From positions 1 through 64,000 of the IMG/VR virus record IMGVR_UViG_3300024520_000063: a stretch of DNA of 64,000 nucleotides. One strand, given 5' to 3'. The DNA is from a virus. Shown here piece after piece: positions 11 to 61,578 of this stretch. The notes under the pieces are model-generated. The model was given only the letters and a program-made list of their open reading frames with translations, was not told where the DNA came from and did no database searches. Each line of letters begins with the position of its first letter. The stretch's first letter is position 1. The position numbers were made by a program, and so were the translations under genes.

Positions 11-3000
11 TTATATAATTTTCCCCATATTGCCAAAGTTGGCATTCAGCTGTCCCATTCCAGTGTTAATCAGATTAAGAATCCTGTTGCCCTCCACGGC
101 AGCGTCAAGTTGCTTATCGCCCTTCAGTGAGGTCTGAATCTGACTGTGCAAACTTCCGACATCAGTCAATCCGACAGGAGCGTCCGTAAGTGACGCCTCT
201 TTGACTCCCGCGATCGCCGCCTCTTCTGCGATCTTCTTCTCAGCATTAGCCACAGACTCGTCATTTCCTGGATCGACATCAGCTTGGATTTGCGCAATCT
301 TGGCTTCAAGGTCACGTCTAATCTTGGCCCTCTGCTCGTCAATGTCGACTTCTCCGTCAGCAGCATCAAGGCGACTCTGGAAATCCGCATTCTCTCCAAT
401 CTTTCTCGCCTGATCCTGACGGCCAGCCTTCAACATATCATCGAACAATTGTGAATCAGCCTCTTCTGTCGCTTTCTGTTTCTCTGCTGGGGTTAGCCTT
501 CCGGCTGCGTCCTCTTCCTCGATTCTTTTTCGTCTGGCAATATCCGCTTCCTGTATCTGGTCCTGCTCTCGGTCCAGTCTTGTGCTGTCTGATTTCAGAG
601 AGTCGATCTCGCTGCCGAACTTCAGTCTTGCCGACTCGTCATTTAGGTATGCGATTCTCTTCTGAGCTGCAAGGAAGTTATTCAGGGCAGCCGTGGCGGC
701 AGCTAACTCAGCAGGCGTCTTGCTAAGAGTGTTCGCCCACTCTTCCAATTGAGCATCAGCACTGAAAGCCTGTGATTTTATATTATATAGGGACTTGGAA
801 AGAGCATCGAGACCTGGCCTGTCAGCTTCCAGCTTGAATGTCTCTGCTAATGCGCTATTAACTCCAATATTCTCCCTTCGCCTAATATCCTTAGCTGACC
901 CCGGGAGCCTGCCTGCGGCTTCAGCACTCTCGCTGCTGATGCGGTTACGGAAATCCGCCATAGTCTCACCAGACTGTCTTTTGAACCTGGATGATTTAAT
1001 GCTCTCCTCTTTGGCCAATTCTTCCTGTCTTGTAAACTCGTCTTTGAATGCCTTCTTGCGACGTATATCGTCTGGGGTCGTGCCTTTAATGCTCTCGTCA
1101 ACACCCTGCCTTCTCTTATCGAAATCAGATTCAATCTTGTCGAGCTTTTGGGTATTTACATCATTTATTCCACCTCCAACACCAGAAAGAAACTTGTCGA
1201 TCGAATCATCGTACAGCTTGATCATGCCCTGTAGTTGATTTCTGTTTTCAGTCAGTGACGCTATTTGTGTTTCGCTGAGCCCACCTTTATCCAGTGTGTC
1301 GTCAATACTCTTTAGTTGTGTTCTGGCACCAAAGGACGCATGTGCCATCGACTCGGCATCCTTAAGGTTGGATACCGATGATCCAAACGCTATCTGGCTT
1401 GTCTTGCCAGACATAAAATCATTCATTCTCTGGGTAAGCTGAACAATGGAGTCCGCGAACGCTTTTGACGCCGCTTCCGCTTCCGCTGTAACTCTGGAAA
1501 TTTCCTCCAAAGTCTCTTTGAATTTTACTAATTCTGGACTGTCCCCGTCGATCTCTTTCAGGCTGTGCAGCAAGCGAGCAATCTCTGCTTTTCCAGCAAG
1601 CGAGCTTTTGTCTATATTAGCTATATCTGTAAGAGATTGCTTATTCTCTGGATTCATTGTAGAACCCAGTCTTTCAGCCGTCTTCATCGCCTTTGCCTTA
1701 CCGCTTACAAGTAATTCATTTAAGACGTGCATCTTAAACGTGTCAAGGCCTTCGTTTGCCCTGTCCGCCAACCCCGGAATATTATCAAAGTCACTTATTT
1801 GATCTTGCGCAGTATCTGCGATTACAGCAGTAAAGTGCATTATCTTGGAGAACGTCTCGTTAAGGCCAGCGGCCCAACCACTACTGGATACATCCAAAAT
1901 AATAGAATCGAGTTGTCCCTCTGCCTTGCTCTTCAGGCCCTCTTTGTCGAAAGCCTTTTGGGTTACTTTCTCTGCCTGAGATACGGAAAATTCTTCAGAC
2001 AGGCCCCGTGATGAGAGAATATCGAGACTGTCAGACCTTCCCTGCTCTCTTAACTTGACCAGTGTTTCAAGCTTGCGTATCAGAATCTCCAAGTCCTTGG
2101 ATGTGTCTTTCGCCGACTTACCCATAAGGGTTATTGCCTCTGCGATCCCGATCATTAGAAGCGTCACACCGCCACTTAAGAGAGCCCCCTTGACCGTGCC
2201 CATCGTTGCGAACAACTGAGCTACGTTATTTGCAGATGCGCGGAGAGCACCGCTCAGGCCAGTTTGTCCGATAACTTGGACAAAGTCCTGTACGGCATAC
2301 GACCCCTGCTGCATCATGAACGTGACTTTGCGCTGCCCTTGAGACGCAGCGTGCGCAGCTTCGTTAAAGCCTCCAGTCGCAGCACTTAGTCTCTGCATGT
2401 TGTTATCGTTATCCTGCAACTCCTTTTGAAGTTCTTTGAATTCCTTAGTGTTACCCCTTCCAGTAGTCTTTAGGTTGTTCATTCGCGTTGTAAGTTTTTT
2501 AGATGCCAGATCAAGCCTTTGCATGTTTTGAAGCATTGGAAGCTGTGATTTTCTAAACTCAATCTGTGCATCGATATTGTCCTGAATGGCTGCGTTTCCG
2601 GAGCCTCTCTCCTTTTTAAGCCTCTCCAGAACACTAATCTCATCTTCCAGATCATTGACCCGGGTAGATCCTCCGCCCTCCACAGCGTCTAGCTCTGACT
2701 GAAATGAGTCTGAAAGTGCGGCCTTTCTTCTCTCGCGGCTCTCATCTCGGTCAACCCTGCTCAAATCCTGTTTCAGTTTTTGTTGTTGTTTTGGGTCAAG
2801 CTTTCTACCCTGGTTGTCGGCTATCTCTGCTGAACTCTCTAGTAATTTTTGCCTCTGCTTATCAAATGGCCCAGTAAGAGCATCTTCAAGCTGCTGTTCC
2901 AGAACGGCATAGGTCTGCTGTCCCAGAATGGCGAACTGAGAAAAGAACTCGTCAGGTGACAGGCCTGCGCCGCTGATTTTATCTGCGCCCTCTGACAACA

Positions 3001-4147
3001 TCCCCCCGACATTCTCGCGGGATAGTTGACGACCGATACGGCCACTGGTTCGCTCTTGATCTCGCCCTCTCCTGGCCTCTTGTCTGGCCACGCCAACTTC
3101 GAACTGTGCATCTCCAATTCTTCCGCTCGCAAGCCCCTCCTGGAGGCCAGCTTCGACCCTGTCATAATATTCGTTTGCAGCCTGCTTGGTTTGTGCGGCA
3201 ATATGCTCAGCCGCATCGCGAGCAGCCTGAGCCAATTCCGGACGGGCATCGTCAGGATCGGCCCCTATACCTCCAACCTGGCTGACTATCTGCTTGCGCT
3301 GCAGTTTGGCAAAGTCCTGTCCGGATACTCCCAACATGTCACGGTTAGCCTGACGCTCCTGCCGCACTCCCGACTCACCCTGGAATCTTTGTGCAAGCCG
3401 GACTGCTCCGAAGTTGCCAGCGGCGTCTGTCATCTGCCTCTCTGCTGTTGAGGCAACCCGAGTGATCGCTTCCGAGTCTCCTTCAGATACTTGAGTCTGT
3501 GCCCTTATTGCCGTTAGGTATCTCTCATGTTCGGATCCTGCATCAATATCGCCAGAGGCACGTCCCGACTTCAACATCTGATCCATGAAGGCGACTGGAT
3601 TGCGATGAATGTCCTTTTTGCCTTCTGTGGTGAACCGACCTCTTGTTTCCTCAAAGGACTCCCTCTGGTTGAGTAGGGATTCCCGCATCGGAAGTGTTCC
3701 GCCAGCACCAAGGAAGGCAGAGGACTTCTGAGCAGCATCTCTAACTTGCTTCTTGAGGCCTAGCTGTCGATCGAGTGCTCGTTCGATCGCCTTCTCGTCC
3801 TGAAGTCGACGAGCTGTGATTGCGTTGCCTTTGTCTTCCTGAGACTGATACCTCTTCAGTGATTCGAGAGCCTGTTTGTCTCGGATGGCCCCTTTCATCT
3901 GAGGGCTCAACTTGAACTCTGTTTGCCCTCCCCTGATTGCACTCTGGAGCCTTTTAATTTCGGCTCCGCCGTTCTTCATGCCTTTGATCCACTGCTCCAG
4001 TCCTTTCACTTGACCAGCAGTGATCATGTCCGGCATTTTGAACTTGTTCAGTTCATTGGCAGCTTCTCGCACGCCCTTCAGAAGCTCAGGTAGACCCTCA
4101 GCCGAGAAGTCTACATGAGCACTGCCGATTGATGTGCCTCTGGCCAT
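11..4147 (-). CDS. tail tape measure protein
   Basis: 1378-aa ORF, extended coiled-coil-rich sequence with central hydrophobic segment (GALLSGGVTLLMIGIAEAITLMG), located at distal end of structural module; typical TMP size/position. Confidence 0.8.
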   Translation of the reverse strand: MARGTSIGSAHVDFSAEGLPELLKGVREAANELNKFKMPDMITAGQVKGLEQWIKGMKNGGAEIKRLQSAIRGGQTEFKLSPQMKGAIRDKQALESLKRYQSQEDKGNAITARRLQDEKAIERALDRQLGLKKQVRDAAQKSSAFLGAGGTLPMRESLLNQRESFEETRGRFTTEGKKDIHRNPVAFMDQMLKSGRASGDIDAGSEHERYLTAIRAQTQVSEGDSEAITRVASTAERQMTDAAGNFGAVRLAQRFQGESGVRQERQANRDMLGVSGQDFAKLQRKQIVSQVGGIGADPDDARPELAQAARDAAEHIAAQTKQAANEYYDRVEAGLQEGLASGRIGDAQFEVGVARQEARRGRDQERTSGRIGRQLSRENVGGMLSEGADKISGAGLSPDEFFSQFAILGQQTYAVLEQQLEDALTGPFDKQRQKLLESSAEIADNQGRKLDPKQQQKLKQDLSRVDRDESRERRKAALSDSFQSELDAVEGGGSTRVNDLEDEISVLERLKKERGSGNAAIQDNIDAQIEFRKSQLPMLQNMQRLDLASKKLTTRMNNLKTTGRGNTKEFKELQKELQDNDNNMQRLSAATGGFNEAAHAASQGQRKVTFMMQQGSYAVQDFVQVIGQTGLSGALRASANNVAQLFATMGTVKGALLSGGVTLLMIGIAEAITLMGKSAKDTSKDLEILIRKLETLVKLREQGRSDSLDILSSRGLSEEFSVSQAEKVTQKAFDKEGLKSKAEGQLDSIILDVSSSGWAAGLNETFSKIMHFTAVIADTAQDQISDFDNIPGLADRANEGLDTFKMHVLNELLVSGKAKAMKTAERLGSTMNPENKQSLTDIANIDKSSLAGKAEIARLLHSLKEIDGDSPELVKFKETLEEISRVTAEAEAASKAFADSIVQLTQRMNDFMSGKTSQIAFGSSVSNLKDAESMAHASFGARTQLKSIDDTLDKGGLSETQIASLTENRNQLQGMIKLYDDSIDKFLSGVGGGINDVNTQKLDKIESDFDKRRQGVDESIKGTTPDDIRRKKAFKDEFTRQEELAKEESIKSSRFKRQSGETMADFRNRISSESAEAAGRLPGSAKDIRRRENIGVNSALAETFKLEADRPGLDALSKSLYNIKSQAFSADAQLEEWANTLSKTPAELAAATAALNNFLAAQKRIAYLNDESARLKFGSEIDSLKSDSTRLDREQDQIQEADIARRKRIEEEDAAGRLTPAEKQKATEEADSQLFDDMLKAGRQDQARKIGENADFQSRLDAADGEVDIDEQRAKIRRDLEAKIAQIQADVDPGNDESVANAEKKIAEEAAIAGVKEASLTDAPVGLTDVGSLHSQIQTSLKGDKQLDAAVEGNRILNLINTGMGQLNANFGNMGKII

Positions 4148-4149
4148 TA

Positions 4150-4647
4150 TCAGTCTCCAGCGCCGGATCCGGCGCTCTCGTCAGAGTCCTTATCATCTTC
4201 CTTCAGACTGTCCGTAATTGTACTCAATGCGTGTTCCATCAGGTCAGTCCAGACTGAACCTTGAAGTGCGGTCATCCAGAAGTCTCGCAGCTGACGCATC
4301 CCGTCCCGGTCCAGGTTATCGAACGTCTCGTCGATATCTTCCTGCTTGATATCAGAGTTTGCCTTCTTCGATGATTGGCAGAATGCGAAGTACAGCCCTT
4401 CCGGGGTACTGGTCCACCTGTTGACGTCCTCATCGCTGATGATGATTCCGTTCATATAGGTATCCAGGGCGACATTGGTCTGTGAGATCATCGCAGCTGG
4501 GTCGTTGGGCAGGCTGCCCACGAAATCCTTGAAAGCGGCCCCGCGAACCTTCCTGATCTCCTCGGCAGCCTGCATCCGGAAACGGTGTCCCAGATTCCCA
4601 AACTTGAAGTTCTTACGGTTGATTTTCAGTGTGAAATCTTTACTCAT
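4150..4647 (-). CDS. hypothetical protein (tail assembly chaperone position)
   Basis: 165-aa ORF immediately upstream of tape-measure gene, 2-nt spacing to neighbours. Confidence 0.5.
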   Translation of the reverse strand: MSKDFTLKINRKNFKFGNLGHRFRMQAAEEIRKVRGAAFKDFVGSLPNDPAAMISQTNVALDTYMNGIIISDEDVNRWTSTPEGLYFAFCQSSKKANSDIKQEDIDETFDNLDRDGMRQLRDFWMTALQGSVWTDLMEHALSTITDSLKEDDKDSDESAGSGAGD

Positions 4648-4649
4648 GT

Positions 4650-5423
4650 CTATCCCTTTGTTAATCCAGCCAGTGCGGGTCGTCCACTGGCAATGTTTTT
4701 GGCCATGACCCTGTATCGCTCAGTGTATTCTTTTCGCAGAATCCTGGTATGTTTCTTTGCCTGCATCTCCAGAACACTCTTCTCATTGGAGACGTCCTCG
4801 ATCTGGTCTTCAGTCTTCCTGATCATCAGAGATATCTGCCCGAGCGTGAGATTGGCGACATCGGCTGGAGAGATATTAAATGGCTCCTTGATTAGAGAGC
4901 CAAACAGGGATGAGCGTTCACGCATGAATCCCTCATCTCCGCCCCCTGACGATTCAGCCAGGACAAGAATTTCGTAGATGTAGCAGATATCAGCGTCACC
5001 AGTCGCAACGTCAATACTCCACTCAATCTTGTGTGACCACTCGTAGCCCTGATCCTCAATTTCGCGACAGTAGCTCTCCTGAGCCTCAAGGAAGTCCATT
5101 CCCGACGAATCCCTTGTAGCCTGCCAGTAGGACAGCACGCGGCCCTCTGGAGACCTGTAATAGCGATTCAGGTCTGAGCCCCGACAACCAATCCACTTGT
5201 GCCGGATAGGCGGGAGAATACCCTCAAGGAACGCTACGCGGTCGTCGTAGTCCTTTATGCGCATAGCAAAGTACCTGGCGTGGAAAAGCGGATCGTTTCG
5301 CAGATACATGATCTGCGCTTCCACTTCTGCCAGGTGCTTGAGGGTTCGACCCCGAATTTGTACCGGCTTTCCCTGAACAATAATCAGCGGGCCGACACCA
5401 CAGAGTGTTGAGAGCCCACTCAT
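4650..5423 (-). CDS. hypothetical structural/assembly protein
   Basis: 257-aa ORF, contiguous with neighbours in structural operon. Confidence 0.5.
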   Translation of the reverse strand: MSGLSTLCGVGPLIIVQGKPVQIRGRTLKHLAEVEAQIMYLRNDPLFHARYFAMRIKDYDDRVAFLEGILPPIRHKWIGCRGSDLNRYYRSPEGRVLSYWQATRDSSGMDFLEAQESYCREIEDQGYEWSHKIEWSIDVATGDADICYIYEILVLAESSGGGDEGFMRERSSLFGSLIKEPFNISPADVANLTLGQISLMIRKTEDQIEDVSNEKSVLEMQAKKHTRILRKEYTERYRVMAKNIASGRPALAGLTKG

Positions 5424-15327: not shown

Positions 15328-16245
15328 ATGACCGACCTCAAATCGATCCCAGAGGGGAAGATTGAGACAGTTGAGATTTCCCTCTTGCGGAACAACCCGC
15401 TCAATGAGGAAATCTACGGCACCGAGGATGTCGACCCTGATCTTTTAAGGTCGATTCAAGATCACGGTGTCGATACGCCGATTGAAGTTCTTCCGGACGG
15501 AACTATCATCAAGGGCCACCGCAGAAAGCTGCACGCAGAAGAGGCTGGGCTTACAGAGGTCCCAGTTATTGTCCGCCACGAGCTGAACTCTCCGGAAGAG
15601 GTTGGCTTCGCTCTGATCGAAGACAATCGCCACCAGAGAAACAGGACGAATATACAGAAGGTGCGTGAAATCATGTACCTGACAGGGATGCTCCAGACCC
15701 AGAACAGAATCCGCAAGGCTACGGGGCTTCCTGTTTATGAGGCTGATGCCCATACGGACGAAGAACTTATGGAGCTTTCCGGGATGAGCCGGGAGAGCTA
15801 CGAGCAGGTTGCCAGTCTCACCGAAAGCTATGCAGCCAGGTTTGGATCGTCAGCATCTCCCCAGGATGTGGCCTGTGATCACATCGGAGTCAGCAAAAAG
15901 ACGTTCATGCAGGGACAGAATGCCCTAAAGACAGCAGAGGCCTGGCGGAGTGCTGGAAACGACAAAAAGGCCGACCAGATCGAAGAGGCTCTCCATAAGG
16001 GTATCTCAACTGGATATCAGGTCGCCAAGAAGATCGGTCAGCCCGGCAAGAGGAGTGAGAAGAAAGTAATCAAGGCTAAGGCCAGCATAGAGTCGGTCAT
16101 TCTCACTCTTAAGAGTATGACGGCGGCACTTCACAAGGCTCGCGTCGCCATTCCAGAATCACTGCGTGATCAGCTCGACACCATCATCAATAAAATCAAT
16201 AGCATGAGGGAAGAACTTGAAAAGTCCGAACTCGACAATACTTGA
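15328..16245 (+). CDS. ParB-like nuclease domain protein
   Basis: N-terminal ParB/Sulfiredoxin-type block (DTPIEVLPDGTIIKGHRRKLHAEEAGLTEVPVIVRHE). Confidence 0.65.
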   Translation: MTDLKSIPEGKIETVEISLLRNNPLNEEIYGTEDVDPDLLRSIQDHGVDTPIEVLPDGTIIKGHRRKLHAEEAGLTEVPVIVRHELNSPEEVGFALIEDNRHQRNRTNIQKVREIMYLTGMLQTQNRIRKATGLPVYEADAHTDEELMELSGMSRESYEQVASLTESYAARFGSSASPQDVACDHIGVSKKTFMQGQNALKTAEAWRSAGNDKKADQIEEALHKGISTGYQVAKKIGQPGKRSEKKVIKAKASIESVILTLKSMTAALHKARVAIPESLRDQLDTIINKINSMREELEKSELDNT

Positions 16246-18496
16246 GGGCGACAGCCTGCAAGTACTCAAAGGCCTGCCTGATAACTCATTCCAGTGCTCC
16301 GTAAGCTCGCCTCCTTACTGGAATTTGCGCAACTATCAAGTCGATGGACAGATAGGGCTTGAGCCAACCGCACGCGAATTCATCCAGAATCTCGTATCTG
16401 TTTACTCAGAACTAAAGAGGGTTCTCCATCCGTCTGGTATTGCCTGGATTAACATAGGCGACAACTACGCCGGTGGAGGAAACAAGCGAGGCAAGGGTAG
16501 TCCGATATCCAGCAAACAGTCCAGTAATGCCGGATGCACTGGCCAGCTTGCGGATGTGCCAATAGTAGAAGATCTTCCACGGAAGAACATGAATGGAATG
16601 CCATGGAGATTTGCCTTTGCAATGCAGGATGACGGCTGGGTCCTCCGAGATGCGATAATTTGGCAGAAAAAGAATCCGATGCCTACGAGCCAAAAAGATA
16701 GATGTACGAACTGTTACGAGTACATCTTTCAGTTCACGAAGGGTCCAAAGTACTTCTTTGATATGGAGTCTGTGAGAGAGCCTGCCAGATATGGAGCTGG
16801 GGAGAACTTTCGGAGTTCGTCATATCTCAATGATAAGTCTCACAACAACAGCCAAGACCGGTCAGGATCGACCGAAGGAGGGATTCCGGGCAAGGGTGGA
16901 ACGCGAGTGCCTAGGAACATCAGAAGCTGGGCAACCCAAGGCTATAAAGGTGCTCACTTTGCTTGTGTTGACGAGGAAACCCAGTGCTTGACCAAAGAAG
17001 GATGGAAGTCTCAAGATCAAATTAAGCCGGGTGATGTCGCCGCCCAGTACAACATGGAGAGCGGCCTCTTGTCCTGGGCTGAAGTTGAAGACGTAGCGAG
17101 ATACGATGTTTCTGACCAAGACATGGTTTCTGCCGAATGCCGTGACTTGTCAATGCTTTTGACTCCTAACCACAGAACGATAATCTCCAGAAGAAGATCG
17201 AGAGGAAAAGGCCATCACCCTCCGACCATAATCGAAGCTGAGAATCTTAGTGATGGCCACAGAATACCAGTCTCTGCCGACTGGGATGATGGCGATCATG
17301 ATCAAACCATGGGAGGGGTAGAGTGGGCAGAACTGATAGGATGGTACGTTGCGGAAGGGTACGAAAACAAGAAATCGTGGTCTGTGGATATATATCAAAG
17401 CAGATCAGCAAATCCGGAAAAGGTCGAGAGGATTCGGCATCTTCTGGATTACGTGGATGCCGAGTACGAAGAGACTCAATCTGAGAGGAAATACAAAAAT
17501 CGCACATGCAGCATGTCTTCATTCAGAATAACTGGTCACGCGGCCATAAAAATAAGAAGCATGGTCCCAGGGAAAAGGCTTTCTTGGTCTTATATGGGGC
17601 TGTCAGCAGAAGAGATGAGGGCTCTTGTTGCTGGACTTATTGCTGGAGATGGACACATTCGGCCAGATGATGGCCGGGTGTGCTTTATCCAGAAGTCGGA
17701 CCACTGTATCGACTTGGTTCAAGCAATGGCTGTTAGGCTGGGATATGCTGTAAAGATCACAAAATCCCCTTCAACATGGAGAATGTACCTGACTGAAAAA
17801 AGATACATTTCTCTTCGTGGTACGAATGGAAGTGGCAGGAATATATCAACAAAGAAATATTCCGGAGTTGTGTGGTGTCCAAAACTACCCCATGGAACCT
17901 GGGTTGCTAGGAGGAATGGACGAGCATTCATAACTGGGAATACTTTTCCAATTTCGCTCCCTCTATGGTGTATTACGGCCAGTGCTCCGAAAGCAGGCGT
18001 CTGTGCTAAATGCTTCACGCCATACAAGCGAGTAGTCGAAAGCATCCGCAGGGCGACCCGTCCGGGAGAAAACACCAAGATCAAGATGCCGGACGGATGG
18101 GACACAGGAGAGGGCGGGCACGGCAGTTTTCATCGGGAAGGCAGAGAGAAAGGCCAGTACCGTGACACAGCAGAGATTGGAAACAGAGATCCGCAACGTC
18201 ACGTCACAGAAACAACCACCGTTGGGTGGGAACCTGGATGCACTTGCGATTGCGGAACTGATTTCCCAGCAATTCTGGATCCCTTCTCAGGGGTCGCCAC
18301 TACAGGACTGGCCTGTTCGCGCCTCCGATGCCACTACGTGGGAATCGAACTTAATCCAGAGTATGCACAGATGTCGCGGGACAGAATCAAGGACGATCTG
18401 ATCAAGGGATTCGATCCGAACCCACATGCCGTGAACCTTAATCTGGGAACTGGTATCGACTTATGTCAGGAAAACGTGTCACAATTTAATTACTAA
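16217..18496 (+). CDS. beta-class amino-DNA methyltransferase (N6A/N4C), intein-containing
   Basis: motif IV SPPYWNLRNY near N-terminus and motif I DPFSGVATTG near C-terminus (beta-class order); central insertion with intein/LAGLIDADG blocks. Confidence 0.75.
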   Translation: MKSPNSTILEGDSLQVLKGLPDNSFQCSVSSPPYWNLRNYQVDGQIGLEPTAREFIQNLVSVYSELKRVLHPSGIAWINIGDNYAGGGNKRGKGSPISSKQSSNAGCTGQLADVPIVEDLPRKNMNGMPWRFAFAMQDDGWVLRDAIIWQKKNPMPTSQKDRCTNCYEYIFQFTKGPKYFFDMESVREPARYGAGENFRSSSYLNDKSHNNSQDRSGSTEGGIPGKGGTRVPRNIRSWATQGYKGAHFACVDEETQCLTKEGWKSQDQIKPGDVAAQYNMESGLLSWAEVEDVARYDVSDQDMVSAECRDLSMLLTPNHRTIISRRRSRGKGHHPPTIIEAENLSDGHRIPVSADWDDGDHDQTMGGVEWAELIGWYVAEGYENKKSWSVDIYQSRSANPEKVERIRHLLDYVDAEYEETQSERKYKNRTCSMSSFRITGHAAIKIRSMVPGKRLSWSYMGLSAEEMRALVAGLIAGDGHIRPDDGRVCFIQKSDHCIDLVQAMAVRLGYAVKITKSPSTWRMYLTEKRYISLRGTNGSGRNISTKKYSGVVWCPKLPHGTWVARRNGRAFITGNTFPISLPLWCITASAPKAGVCAKCFTPYKRVVESIRRATRPGENTKIKMPDGWDTGEGGHGSFHREGREKGQYRDTAEIGNRDPQRHVTETTTVGWEPGCTCDCGTDFPAILDPFSGVATTGLACSRLRCHYVGIELNPEYAQMSRDRIKDDLIKGFDPNPHAVNLNLGTGIDLCQENVSQFNY
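16985..17941 (+). mobile_element. intein with LAGLIDADG homing-endonuclease domain inside the methyltransferase gene
   Basis: starts Cys (CLTKEGW), contains LIGWYVAEGY and LVAGLIAGDGHI (two LAGLIDADG blocks), ends ...ITGN followed by Thr; splicing would restore HFATFP, matching HPAVFP of the paralogous MTase at 26922. Confidence 0.65.
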
Positions 18497-18977: not shown

Positions 18978-19367
18978 ATGTTGCCATGCCCGTTCTGTGC
19001 GTCGGACAATTGCCATGTAATGGAGAAGCCGGGGCATCCTCGCCTGTGGGTGGAGTGCCTGGACTGTGGCTCTTCAGGCCCAGATGTTTTCTCTTGGGAT
19101 GGGGCAGAGGAGTCCTGGAATATTCGCGGCTGTGATTGCATGTCGGAGCAGTTCGAAAACCACACGGAGATCGATGAGGTCACGCTTCGCCCGGAAATTA
19201 ATTGTGGAGAGAGGCAACTTGGCCGCTGGACGATAGTTGCCCATCACGAGCGGAACGGCAGGAAATACAAGGCTTATGAGTTTCCTGCGGTGGATGATGA
19301 TCTGATCGGGGATATCCTGAAAAGCCTATTCGCATCAGGAGCCAGATCGACAGACGCTACTCAGTAA
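18978..19367 (+). CDS. Lar-family restriction alleviation protein homolog
   Basis: N-terminal CPFCASDNCH...CLDCGSSGP...AEESWNIRG matches Lar family zinc-ribbon pattern (CPFCG...C..CG...A...WN.R). Confidence 0.55.
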   Translation: MLPCPFCASDNCHVMEKPGHPRLWVECLDCGSSGPDVFSWDGAEESWNIRGCDCMSEQFENHTEIDEVTLRPEINCGERQLGRWTIVAHHERNGRKYKAYEFPAVDDDLIGDILKSLFASGARSTDATQ

Positions 19368-19385
19368 TCATATTCAGGAACACGC

Positions 19386-20000
19386 ATGACTCAGAAAGTA
19401 ATCTCTCTGTGTGATCGCACAGGGAACATGGTTAAGCCATGGGCAGAGGCTGGATACGAATGCATCTGTGTTGATATCCAGCATTCCATCCGAAGGACAA
19501 AAGTCAAAGGCAACATCACCTATCAGTGGGGCGACGTCCGGTCGTGGTGGCCTTTTCCGGATTGGGATATTGCCATGGTGTTTGCAGCGCCACTTTGCAC
19601 GGACCTCTCGGTTTCAGGTGCTCAAGACTGGCCCAAGAAGGGCCTGACTCGCTTAATTGACGCCCTGACTATGGTTGAATGCTGTCGTCGCATCGGAGAG
19701 TTCAGCCGAGCACCATGGATGATCGAGAACCCGGTCGGAAGACTCTCGTCCTTGTGGAGCAAGCCGGACTACACGTTCCAGCCATGGAACTACGGAGATA
19801 TGTATCAGAAGAAGACCTGCCTCTGGACGAACGAGAAGTTTGTGATGCCAGAGTTTCAGATCACAGAAAAACCAGAGGAAGTCACTCAGGATATCTGGAC
19901 TATGTCCCCATCTGCTAACCGGGCCGATCTTCGGTCGGTCACTCCGATGGGATTCTCAAAAGCAGTATTCGAGGCCAATCATCGTATTAAGGCCTCGTGA
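19386..20000 (+). CDS. C5-cytosine DNA methyltransferase-like protein, N-terminal catalytic half only
   Basis: motif I-like ISLCDRTGNM, motif IV-like FAAPLCTDLSVSGA (cf GGPPCQGFSxAG), motif VI-like ENPVGRL; lacks TRD and motifs IX-X. Confidence 0.4.
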   Translation: MTQKVISLCDRTGNMVKPWAEAGYECICVDIQHSIRRTKVKGNITYQWGDVRSWWPFPDWDIAMVFAAPLCTDLSVSGAQDWPKKGLTRLIDALTMVECCRRIGEFSRAPWMIENPVGRLSSLWSKPDYTFQPWNYGDMYQKKTCLWTNEKFVMPEFQITEKPEEVTQDIWTMSPSANRADLRSVTPMGFSKAVFEANHRIKAS

Positions 20001-26921: not shown

Positions 26922-27671
26922 ATGGAGATAAATAAAATTTACAACGAAAATTGTCTTGATACGATGGCAAAAATGCCTGATTGCTTTGTGGATTTAACGG
27001 TTACTTCACCGCCTTATGATAATTTGAGAGATTACAAAGGGTTTGATTTTGATTGGAAAACTATAATAAAAGAACTTTATAGGGTAACAAAAGAGGGTGG
27101 TGTAGTAGTTTGGGTTGTTGGTGATGCAACAATTAAAGGAAGTGAAACGGGAACATCTTTTAAGCAAGCATTACACGCTATTGATTGTGGTTTTCGTTTG
27201 CACGATACAATGATTTACTCAAAAGCAAGTCAGCCAAGACAAAACGGGCATAGGTATGAACAGCAATTTGAATATATGTTTGTGTTTAGTAAAGGGAAAG
27301 TTAAAATAAAAAACATTATAAAAGAACCATCTAAAAATGCAGGAAAGGTTGTCAAAAGGACTTGTAGAGATAGTGGAAAAGATGAACTAAAAAGTAGTAA
27401 AAATATTGTTTCAGACTTAAAAACAAAAGGGAATGTGTGGTTTTACGGAACTAAAAAAAACGACACAAAACACCCTGCTGTATTTCCTAAACAATTAGCA
27501 AACGACCATATCATAAGTTGGAGCAATGAAAACGATTTAATCTACGACCCATTTTTGGGAAGTGGAACAACGGCTAAAATGGCGTTACTAAACAATCGAA
27601 AATTTGTCGGGAGTGAAATATCAAAAGAGTATTGCGAAATTGCAGAGAAGCGAATCAATGAAAATCTATAA
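26922..27671 (+). CDS. beta-class amino-DNA methyltransferase (orphan), AT-rich codon usage
   Basis: SPPYDNLRDY (motif IV) then DPFLGSGTT (motif I); paralog of 16217 MTase but with strongly AT-biased codons. Confidence 0.8.
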   Translation: MEINKIYNENCLDTMAKMPDCFVDLTVTSPPYDNLRDYKGFDFDWKTIIKELYRVTKEGGVVVWVVGDATIKGSETGTSFKQALHAIDCGFRLHDTMIYSKASQPRQNGHRYEQQFEYMFVFSKGKVKIKNIIKEPSKNAGKVVKRTCRDSGKDELKSSKNIVSDLKTKGNVWFYGTKKNDTKHPAVFPKQLANDHIISWSNENDLIYDPFLGSGTTAKMALLNNRKFVGSEISKEYCEIAEKRINENL

Positions 27672-61096: not shown

Positions 61097-61423
61097 CGAA
61101 AGGCCCGCGTAGTGTTAATCAACACGCAAGTCTCTAAAACTTGAAATCTGGGTTAAAGTCCCAGCGCGGGCAATCAATTACCGACCCGGACCCTGTTGCC
61201 GAATAATGCCGTGTCTCGACCGACTGCGCCCGTGTAACCGAAAAAAGCCCTTACCTTCCGCGTAGAAGAATGCCACCGAGGGAACACTTACCGGAAAGCT
61301 CACCGTAACCGATCGCTACTGTTTTTCTCTTGACTAATCAGGATTCTCAAATAGGCTTTCATCTGCCGACCCTCAGGGGAACTTGGACTGGCCCGGTCTT
61401 GTGACTCTGGGGTGTCGGCTTTT

Positions 61424-61502: not shown

Positions 61503-61578
61503 GAAGAGGTGGTGTAGCGGAAACACGCCGTCGTGATCGATCAGGGCGGAACCCGAGGTTCAAATCCTCGTCCCTTCA
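61503..61578 (+). tRNA. second tRNA-like element
   Basis: acceptor GAAGAGG/TCCCTTC (one mismatch), D-arm GTGT-AGCGGAA-ACAC, T-arm CGAGG-TTCAAAT-CCTCG; anticodon region has 12-nt loop so noncanonical. Confidence 0.3.

Follow-up and report, generated by a model that had tools for sequence, protein, structure and literature searches.

A predicted full-length LAGLIDADG intein in a DNA methyltransferase gene of an uncultured phage

Positions 1 to 64,000 of the IMG/VR virus record IMGVR_UViG_3300024520_000063 (64,000 nucleotides (nt), hereafter the window) contain a phage DNA methyltransferase gene that is interrupted by a long in-frame insert. This insert is very probably a full-length class-1-type intein, consisting of a Hint domain and a nested LAGLIDADG endonuclease, which occupies 16964..17941 between Ala249 and Thr576 of the methyltransferase and is predicted to splice and to home. 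For annotation, this means that the gene is best read as a 433-amino-acid (aa) methyltransferase plus a 326-aa mobile intein, and not as a 759-aa enzyme. The parts of the gene and the uninterrupted paralog used as an internal reference are as follows.

16217..18496, + strand: precursor open reading frame (ORF), 759 aa, TTG start, stop included; matches PF01555 at E 5e-32, in two pieces
16217..16963, + strand: N-extein, aa 1-249, with SPPY, ending in ...YKGAHFA; alignments with intein-free homologs stop here
16964..17941, + strand: intein, 326 aa (978 nt), precursor aa 250-575, Hint domain with nested LAGLIDADG endonuclease; an exact gap in comparison with homologs
17942..18496, + strand: C-extein, aa 576-759 plus stop codon, starting with TFPISL, with a Cys-rich insert (CAKC...CTCDC) and DPFSG
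26922..27671, + strand: paralogous N6/N4 methyltransferase, 249 aa, intein-free, with HPAVFP; internal reference for the uninterrupted motif

Judged by its sequence features, the interrupted ORF is a phage beta-class N6/N4 DNA methyltransferase. A Pfam scan detected PF01555 (N6_N4_Mtase) in two separated pieces with LAGLIDADG_3 (PF14528) between them, and the SPPY (motif IV, aa 31-34) and DPFSG (motif I, aa 688-692) sequences, which a first-pass annotation had reported in a 759-aa methyltransferase, are both present, with motif IV N-terminal to motif I as in the beta class. The spliced extein matched TTHA0409, CcrM, DpnA, N4C methyltransferases, RsrI, and PvuII in the PDB, and no literature match could be found for methyltransferase motif strings such as HPTQKP. 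An identical gene call is located on a 99-kb metagenomic contig (ENA ERZ27250054 k141_2962676); since major capsid, portal, and prohead-protease genes lie just upstream on that contig, the window belongs to a tailed-phage genome.

The boundaries of the insert could be placed by comparison with uninterrupted relatives. When the precursor was aligned with eight homologs and the in-window paralog, all nine showed a clean gap at aa 250-575, flanked by ...AHFA on one side and on the other by T-[FY]-P, or V-F-P in the case of the paralog. The flanks are near-invariant in the methyltransferase family, as H247, A249, and P578 are invariant and T576 nearly so in the same alignment. As this invariant core motif is split by the insert, the mature methyltransferase probably needs splicing to be active. 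Moreover, the BLASTP alignment with the gp61 methylase of the cultured mycobacteriophage DLane stops at GAHFA and resumes at V-Y-P, which is aligned to T-F-P; an apparent reach of the tblastn matches with DLane-type methylases into the intein (query up to 313) turned out to be an artefact of piece-joining. Nine homologs and the in-window paralog, ten intein-free relatives in all, run through this position without a break, so that the insert has the character expected of an intein, namely an in-frame insertion at a conserved host site that is absent from close homologs.

At the left junction the codons are GGT GCT CAC TTT GCT / TGT GTT GAC GAG GAA ACC CAG TGC (here and below, a slash marks the junction), and the first Cys codon is TGT at 16964..16966 (Cys250, or Cys1 of the intein). 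The insert ends with ...ATA ACT GGG AAT at 17941, followed by ACT (Thr). Because an HFA/.../TFP junction requires the first Cys codon, the start was placed at 16964, and block A (C-V-D-E-E-T-Q-C-L-T-K-E-G-W) fits the intein consensus only with the first Cys as residue 1. The first-pass annotation was right that the insertion begins with Cys and wrong as to which one: its start at 16985, giving 319 aa, is the second Cys (C-L-T-K-E-G-W), seven residues inside the 326-aa element. Its right boundary, GN followed by Thr, agrees with the observed ...FITGN at 17941 and the Thr that comes next. Removal of the insert recreates ...KGAHFA-TFPISL, as it had proposed, and the intein-free paralog indeed has HPAVFP at the aligned position. 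At the DNA level, the joined exteins of the window read ...GGTGCTCACTTTGCT/ACTTTTCCAATT....

The conservation of intein blocks was examined in relatives of the insert. A phmmer search with the intein in 1.84 billion cluster representatives returned 7,823 matches at E<=1e-3 (an upper bound, which probably includes more distant LAGLIDADG inteins), 3,093 at 1e-10, and 299 at 1e-30. All residue counts given here refer to the 144 best proteins of this search, in which 148 full-length intein domains were compared.

16964..17002, + strand: block A (CVDEETQCLTKEG); Cys1 in 148/148, Thr10 in 143/148, Gly13 in 148/148
17144..17185, + strand: block B (DLSMLLTPNHRTII); Thr B:7 at 17162..17164 (146/148), His B:10 at 17171..17173 (148/148)
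17276..17827, + strand: LAGLIDADG domain, approximately intein aa 105-288; motif 1 ELIGWYVAEGY at 17330..17362, motif 2 LVAGLIAGDGHI at 17624..17659
17867..17914, + strand: block F (VVWCPKLPHGTWVARR); Trp F:3 in 146/148, Cys F:4 in 147/148
17921..17944, + strand: block G (RAFITGN) and the C-extein +1 Thr (17942..17944); Thr G:5 in 144/148, Gly G:6 in 147/148, Asn G:7 in 147/148

Block A provides the predicted N-terminal nucleophile (Cys1), block B the Thr/His pair (Thr67 and His70, in T-P-N-H at intein positions 67-70, a stretch that also gave a weak Pfam Hint_2 match), and block G the C-terminal Asn, which is followed by a +1 nucleophile (...ITGN, then T). At +1, 102 family members have Thr, 41 have Ser, and 5 have Cys. 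Residue B:12 is more variable (Cys 68, Thr 24, Trp 17, Asn 15, and Val 10) and is Thr72 in the window copy, and the family has no conserved His at F:13. Cys305 (F:4) is located 21 positions ahead of the terminal Asn. An A-R-R-N-G motif precedes block G in the window copy, and A-R-R-x-G is nearly invariant in the close clade. The two LAGLIDADG-like blocks reported by the first-pass annotation were both found, and their acidic residues are kept (E131, Glu or Asp in 147/148; D229, 146/148).

Profile and structure searches point in the same direction. LAGLIDADG_3 (PF14528) was detected at E 8e-10, with 39 bits against a cut-off of 22.5. A profile was built from 18 members of the intein family, and the same alignment was used for AlphaFold2. 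Compared with PDB sequences, this profile matched AceL NrdHF-1-1 (5.4e-6), PI-PkoII (6.5e-6), and PI-MtuI mini-inteins (5e-4 to 7e-4). The AlphaFold2 model of the intein had a mean predicted local distance difference test score (pLDDT) of 93.5 and a predicted template modelling score (pTM) of 0.91, with beta-rich N- and C-terminal parts around an alpha/beta core. In a Foldseek search of the PDB with this model, the top 16 matches were full-length LAGLIDADG inteins, including TliVMA, PhoVMA, PI-SceI, PI-PfuI, and PI-PkoII (E 1.5e-15 to 9e-9, TM ~0.6), and the free-standing endonucleases I-DmoI and I-SceI came next (E 1e-5). A Hint fold is therefore indicated by the AlphaFold2 model, Foldseek, and the family profile, and the two LAGLIDADG motifs (ELIGWYVAEG and VAGLIAGDG) lie in a modelled order of helices and strands that fits alpha-beta-beta-alpha-beta-beta-alpha. 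In addition, the relative P0141 (180 aa) is a natural mini-intein from which exactly the central endonuclease domain is deleted. An open frame of 326 codons with intein profile and fold matches is far beyond random expectation. The interpretation as a LAGLIDADG intein is thus supported, and every computational test named by the first-pass annotation, including the profile check, came out in its favour.

Two other kinds of element were considered and rejected. A group I or group II intron was ruled out, as the insert is in frame without stop codons and has no Rfam intron match; an Rfam search of the region at E<=1 gave a single sub-threshold CRISPR-repeat match and no intron family. A bacterial intein-like (BIL) domain was ruled out as well, since the +1 residue is Thr and all 148 relatives have Thr, Ser, or Cys there.

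Several observations weigh against the assignment as a splicing and homing class 1 intein. Both activities are deduced for the window copy. The penultimate His (G:6), which is usual and not obligatory, since exceptions that splice in its absence are known (PMC5050341), is replaced by Gly325. As a single sequence, the insert matched Pfam Hint_2 only at E 0.015-0.25, and none of the intein-splicing or intein-terminus models of Pfam and NCBIfam was significant, the family profile and the predicted fold being the only ones that were. Moreover, the exact window protein was found on only five contigs. Among the other single-sequence results, the NCBIfam models PRK08332 and rSAM_Tes_intein, which describe intein-bearing ribonucleotide reductase and Tes proteins, matched at E 2.5e-5 to 3e-4 and fell well short of the curated cut-offs, and a phmmer comparison of the intein alone with PDB sequences produced nothing beyond chance matches.

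The penultimate Gly had been noted in the first-pass annotation as uncommon for inteins. It is present as described; however, it is no oddity of this copy, and because 147 of the 148 relatives share it, it can be considered a hallmark of the clade rather than a defect. It forms part of a tight signature (C1 / W-C / T-G-N) in common with the intein of Bethlehem gp51, a recombination directionality factor (RDF)/metallophosphoesterase, which spliced completely in an E. coli maltose-binding protein (MBP)-intein-green fluorescent protein (GFP) reporter with its native penultimate Gly, while the G316H mutant spliced more slowly (PMC5050341). According to the same study, class 1 inteins of mycobacteriophages show little conservation of the penultimate His, and toxicity made it necessary to recover a mutation that inactivates the endonuclease of the Bethlehem gp51 intein (PMC5050341). 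Splicing of the window copy is supported only indirectly, by that of this family member (PMC5050341).

For the window intein, the standard class 1 pathway followed by endonuclease-driven homing is the best-supported mechanism. After translation of the 759-aa precursor, Cys1 would undergo an N-to-S acyl shift aided by block B Thr67 and His70, a first step that is argued for by the invariance of Cys1. The +1 Thr would then attack the thioester and produce a branched intermediate, cyclisation of Asn326 would release the intein without the help of a penultimate His in this family, and an O-to-N shift would yield the active 433-aa methyltransferase (...GAHFA-TFPISL...). The endonuclease of the freed intein, with Glu131 and Asp229 as its catalytic residues, would cut intein-free alleles at the coding site of HFA/TFP, into which the intein would be copied during co-infection.

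The window intein is a member of a very large, mostly uncharacterised phage-borne clade (Cys1...Trp-Cys at F:3-F:4...Thr-Gly-Asn). A more far-reaching interpretation, to which we would give a rather small probability, is that this clade is mechanistically distinct from textbook class 1 inteins. It would be based on the lack of His at G:6 and F:13, the occurrence of Cys F:4 and Thr G:5 beside an invariant Cys1, and the Trp-Cys-Thr (WCT) triplet of 17/148 members. Such a clade could use a thioester relay from Cys1 to Cys F:4 or a Cys1-Cys F:4 redox switch, and it could also be the class 1 stock from which phage class 3 inteins arose.

Another alternative, still less probable, is that the element is a relic, in which splicing or the endonuclease is dead and the methyltransferase copy is inactive, so that the phage relies on the enzymes encoded at 19386..20000 and 26922..27671. 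With two further methyltransferases in the phage, loss of the intein-bearing one might be tolerated; the penultimate His is absent; and inactive phage and prophage inteins are known, such as the Arth_1007 pseudogene (PMC3196547). On the other hand, the 978-nt reading frame is intact, every residue invariant across the 148 family members is kept, including both LAGLIDADG acidic residues, and the exteins retain all residues that are invariant in the methyltransferase family. Gly is the usual G:6 residue of this family and does not prevent efficient splicing of the Bethlehem gp51 intein (PMC5050341).

It is very unlikely that the intein follows a class-3-like or hybrid route, in which Cys305 (F:4), in place of Cys1 or together with it, carries the N-extein thioester before Thr+1 does, or that Cys305 forms a regulatory disulfide with Cys1. 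Of the features by which Tori et al. defined class 3 (PMC2807308, PMC5222942), the window copy has Cys305, Thr324, and Thr+1, and neither Trp at B:12 nor the absence of an N-terminal nucleophile. Three of the five class 3 signatures are widespread in the family (Cys F:4 147/148, Thr G:5 144/148, Ser/Thr +1 143/148), and Trp B:12 completes the WCT triplet in 17/148. Moreover, the 21-residue spacing from Cys to Asn equals that of Cys124-Asn145 in MchDnaB1 and Mle DnaB (PMC7664689, PMC5222942), and the splicing route of WCT inteins with Cys1 or Ser1 was left open by Tori et al. (PMC2807308). However, class 3 inteins have lost Cys1, whereas it is present in all 148 members here and the block B Thr and His are intact, as the class 1 acyl shift expects; B:12 of the window copy is Thr instead of Trp; and phage inteins of this kind were classed as class 1 by Kelley et al. 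(PMC5050341). According to the review literature, only one residue is more frequent at F:4 than Cys (PMC4031507), and the class 1 inteins that have Cys there are recognised as a polyphyletic group (PMC3196547), which is why a hybrid or redox role of Cys305 is considered so improbable. The remaining possibility, that the insert is a permanent LAGLIDADG/Hint-like domain of the mature enzyme, neither spliced nor mobile, can draw on the Hint-less in-frame LAGLIDADG inserts of related methyltransferases (P0085, L009, and Taj_79; PMC9957025) and has almost no chance of being correct, as the insert splits an invariant catalytic-core motif, contains Hint blocks A, B, F, and G in full, with a nucleophile at each junction, and has relatives with identical termini in unrelated hosts (phosphoesterase, NrdD, portal, and TerL), a pattern that marks a mobile splicing element rather than a functional domain of a methyltransferase.

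The class-1-type intein of the window belongs to a large phage intein family that has already been described, and it is a fairly ordinary find with a modest gain for intein biology. Phage methylase inteins were listed as DNMT-1/2 and classed as class 1 by Kelley et al. in 2016 (PMC5050341), and the 327-aa methylase intein of Dorothy, ShiLan, Lilac, and Bobi was analysed by Gosselin et al. in 2023 (PMC9957025). With these Dorothy-type and Bethlehem gp51 studies, both inteins in phage N6/N4 methylases and His-less splicing within the family were already known. What is new is the insertion site H-F-A/T-F-P, which is not seen in deposited phage genomes and differs from the actinophage site. The family could also yield His-independent splicing domains for protein engineering, and the evolution of class 3 inteins could be studied with its help.

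Comparison with individual relatives illustrates both the unity of the family and its differences. The Bethlehem gp51 intein, which as extracted has 317 aa with Gly316 in agreement with the published numbering, aligns end to end with the window intein (E 3e-12), and the two have in common Cys1, T-x-x-H, a V-W-C block F, T-G-N followed by Ser/Thr, and LAGLIDADG motifs. They are only 23% identical, however; the Bethlehem intein lies at HEGNHD/SRARDY in a phosphoesterase of an actinophage, in contrast to the methyltransferase of an uncultured metagenomic phage, and it lacks the A-R-R-N-G motif before block G. The methylase intein of Dorothy gp75 (327 aa) is closer, with 31% identity over all 326 residues (E 2e-31), and its host is also a phage beta-class N6/N4 methyltransferase, with a patchy distribution and inferred horizontal transfer. 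It shares its termini with the window copy (...WLYG/CLTADTEVLT ... VWC ... FITGN/SGFPKS). On the other hand, it is located at IAWLYG/SGFPKS, in the I-x-W-x-K...P region of a different methyltransferase family, its +1 residue is Ser instead of Thr, and the equivalent of the window site in Dorothy gp75 (AHNT-VKP) is uninterrupted.

The nearest relatives are same-site inteins at H-F-A/T-F-P (P0121-P0131, P0143 onward, L009, and L010), which belong to the same clade, are 45-54% identical to the window intein, and read C-V-D...I-T-G-N/T-F-P. Their exteins are 37-45% identical to that of the window, and none is annotated or described as an intein in the source records seen. Two of these relatives (L007 and L008) have a two-ORF methyltransferase, and L009 lacks the Cys-rich insert of the C-extein. 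More distant comparisons involve class 3 inteins (MP-Be DnaB, Msm/Mch DnaB1, and Dra Snf2), which resemble the window copy in Cys F:4, Thr G:5, Ser/Thr +1, and a strong phage association, but have no N-terminal nucleophile, require Trp B:12, and have His G:6 (T-H-N), compared with Cys1, Thr B:12, and Gly G:6 in the window. The best structural matches, PI-SceI, PI-PfuI, and TliVMA/PhoVMA, share the Hint domain with a nested two-motif LAGLIDADG endonuclease, whereas they are only 10-15% identical, have 360-540 aa with extra DNA-recognition regions and a penultimate His, and reside in archaeal or yeast housekeeping genes. These inteins have Asp at F:4.

The distribution of the intein among copies of the host gene is sporadic. 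The spliced extein (433 aa) has 7,695 relatives at E<=1e-10, and none of the 120 best carries an intein at the H-F-A/T-F-P site, which disposes of the possibility, raised in the first-pass annotation, that the insertion is present in all homologs. The closest relative, P0001, is 73% identical over 431 residues, uninterrupted, and reads ...YKGAHFATYPIELP... (...GAHFATYP...). On its contig, L006, it adjoins a ParB gene that shares 79% identity with its counterpart in the window, and it therefore represents the same locus of a related phage in its intein-free form.

15328..16245, + strand: ParB_N-domain gene (PF02195); overlaps the start of the methyltransferase gene and is also a conserved neighbour of the intein-free allele

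Around the junction, the window and L006 alleles are identical at 41/60 nt, and the candidate homing target taken from the intein-free L006 allele reads ...GGTGCTCACTTCGCA/ACTTACCCGATC.... A search of the six-frame translation with the family hidden Markov model found no second copy of the intein family in the window.

The distribution of the family was examined in metagenomes and deposited genomes. In metagenomes, the H-[FY]-[AS]/[TS]-[FY]-P site of N6/N4 methyltransferases hosts 116/148 family domains, and related inteins were also found in calcineurin-like phosphoesterase, other methylases, NrdD, portal, TerL, and unannotated proteins. By tblastn, 236 records among 50,697 deposited phage genomes carry the intein family, mostly actinophages, and in none of these genomes does a methyltransferase bear this intein at H-F-A/T-F-P. 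In the same deposited phages, no record reached >=80% coverage in tblastn with the full protein, and megablast with the whole gene gave no match. A peptide that spans the junction was matched in its extein half or in its intein half, and never in both within a methylase. The same allele occurs in Streptomyces chiangmaiensis (L009) and in a Gemmatimonadales metagenome-assembled genome (MAG; L010) and is common in metagenomes; a search of GTDB genomes with the single protein returned nothing, but a tighter alignment did find loci. Metagenomic phages and two bacterial genomes thus make heavy use of H-F-A/T-F-P as an insertion site, a use that is absent from the 50,697 deposited phage genomes.

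Two observations may bear on mobility. While the closest inteins are 50-54% identical to that of the window, identity between their host exteins and the window extein is only 37-45%. Moreover, GC content and GC content at third codon positions (GC3) are 0.472 and 0.457 in the intein, 0.495 and 0.526 in the N-extein, and 0.526 and 0.524 in the C-extein (GC of the whole window, 0.518). The mismatch between extein and intein identity and the lower GC3 of the intein fit acquisition by homing or horizontal spread, although neither proves homing.

Other insertions were observed in the same methyltransferase family. P0002, P0008, and P0059 carry a different intein at a second site (...IWHK/CLAGSTR ... 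VTHN/SNPMPTS), which ends with T-H-N and is detected by PF14890; the family is thus a hot spot for inteins, which occupy at least two sites in it independently. P0085 and L009 (~2051..4000) contain an in-frame LAGLIDADG-type insert (AAWLAALIDGEGT...) without recognisable Hint blocks, located between the F-x-x-[TS]-K and [FY]-F-D motifs, which resembles the 'second homing endonuclease' of actinophage methylases (PMC9957025); L009 carries both this insert and the H-F-A/T-F-P intein. In L007 (7246..9554) and L008 (758..3111), phage contigs with the close intein relative P0122, gene calling divides the methyltransferase into two ORFs with a 4-nt overlap, namely a 252- or 267-aa N-terminal part (PF01555) and a part of 517 aa whose start lies ~50 residues ahead of the intein. 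This layout could reflect a frameshift, a real split enzyme, or a pseudogene, and several other matches of ~500 aa that start at a similar point may share it.

Outside methyltransferases, a 314-aa intein of the same family (CVDEETECLTENGW ... FITGN/T) was found in L011-L043, which are Chromatiaceae genomes and one Peregrinibacteria MAG (~30 genomes; match 4001..4942). Its host looks, by eye, like the anaerobic ribonucleotide reductase NrdD, with the insertion at ...NVPSRWG[CT]Q/TPFTN.... In Chromatium weissei (L011), the same gene has a second, upstream intein with an HNH-type motif (HHINGNKIDNRPENL ... VFVHN/CAGWSL).

The C-extein of the window methyltransferase contains a Cys-rich insert of ~100 aa (18005..18280, C-extein aa 597-688) between H-F-A-T-F-P and motif I, with the pattern C-A-K-C ... 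KMPDGWDTGEGGHGSFHREGREKG ... GNRDPQRHVTET ... C-T-C-D-C. It is highly conserved in the window methyltransferase subfamily and absent from DLane gp61, L009, and the in-window paralog, and it may be a putative zinc-binding DNA-recognition module.

In total, the phage encodes three DNA methyltransferases, comprising the intein-bearing enzyme, a phrog_757 enzyme (19386..20000), and the 249-aa N6/N4 enzyme (26922..27671). It also encodes the ParB_N protein (15328..16245), and a weak Lar-like restriction-alleviation match lies at 18978..19367. Taken together, these genes suggest a heavy investment in the evasion of host restriction.

Two tRNA genes were predicted by ARAGORN near the end of the window. 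One of them, at 61103..61172 (+), has the anticodon CTA of an amber suppressor and is labelled tRNA-Pyl; no sign of TAG recoding by a suppressor tRNA was seen in the window, where read-through merges no ORFs and TAG ends 13/70 long ORFs. The other, at 61503..61578 (+), is a tRNA-Asp with the unusual anticodon ATC.

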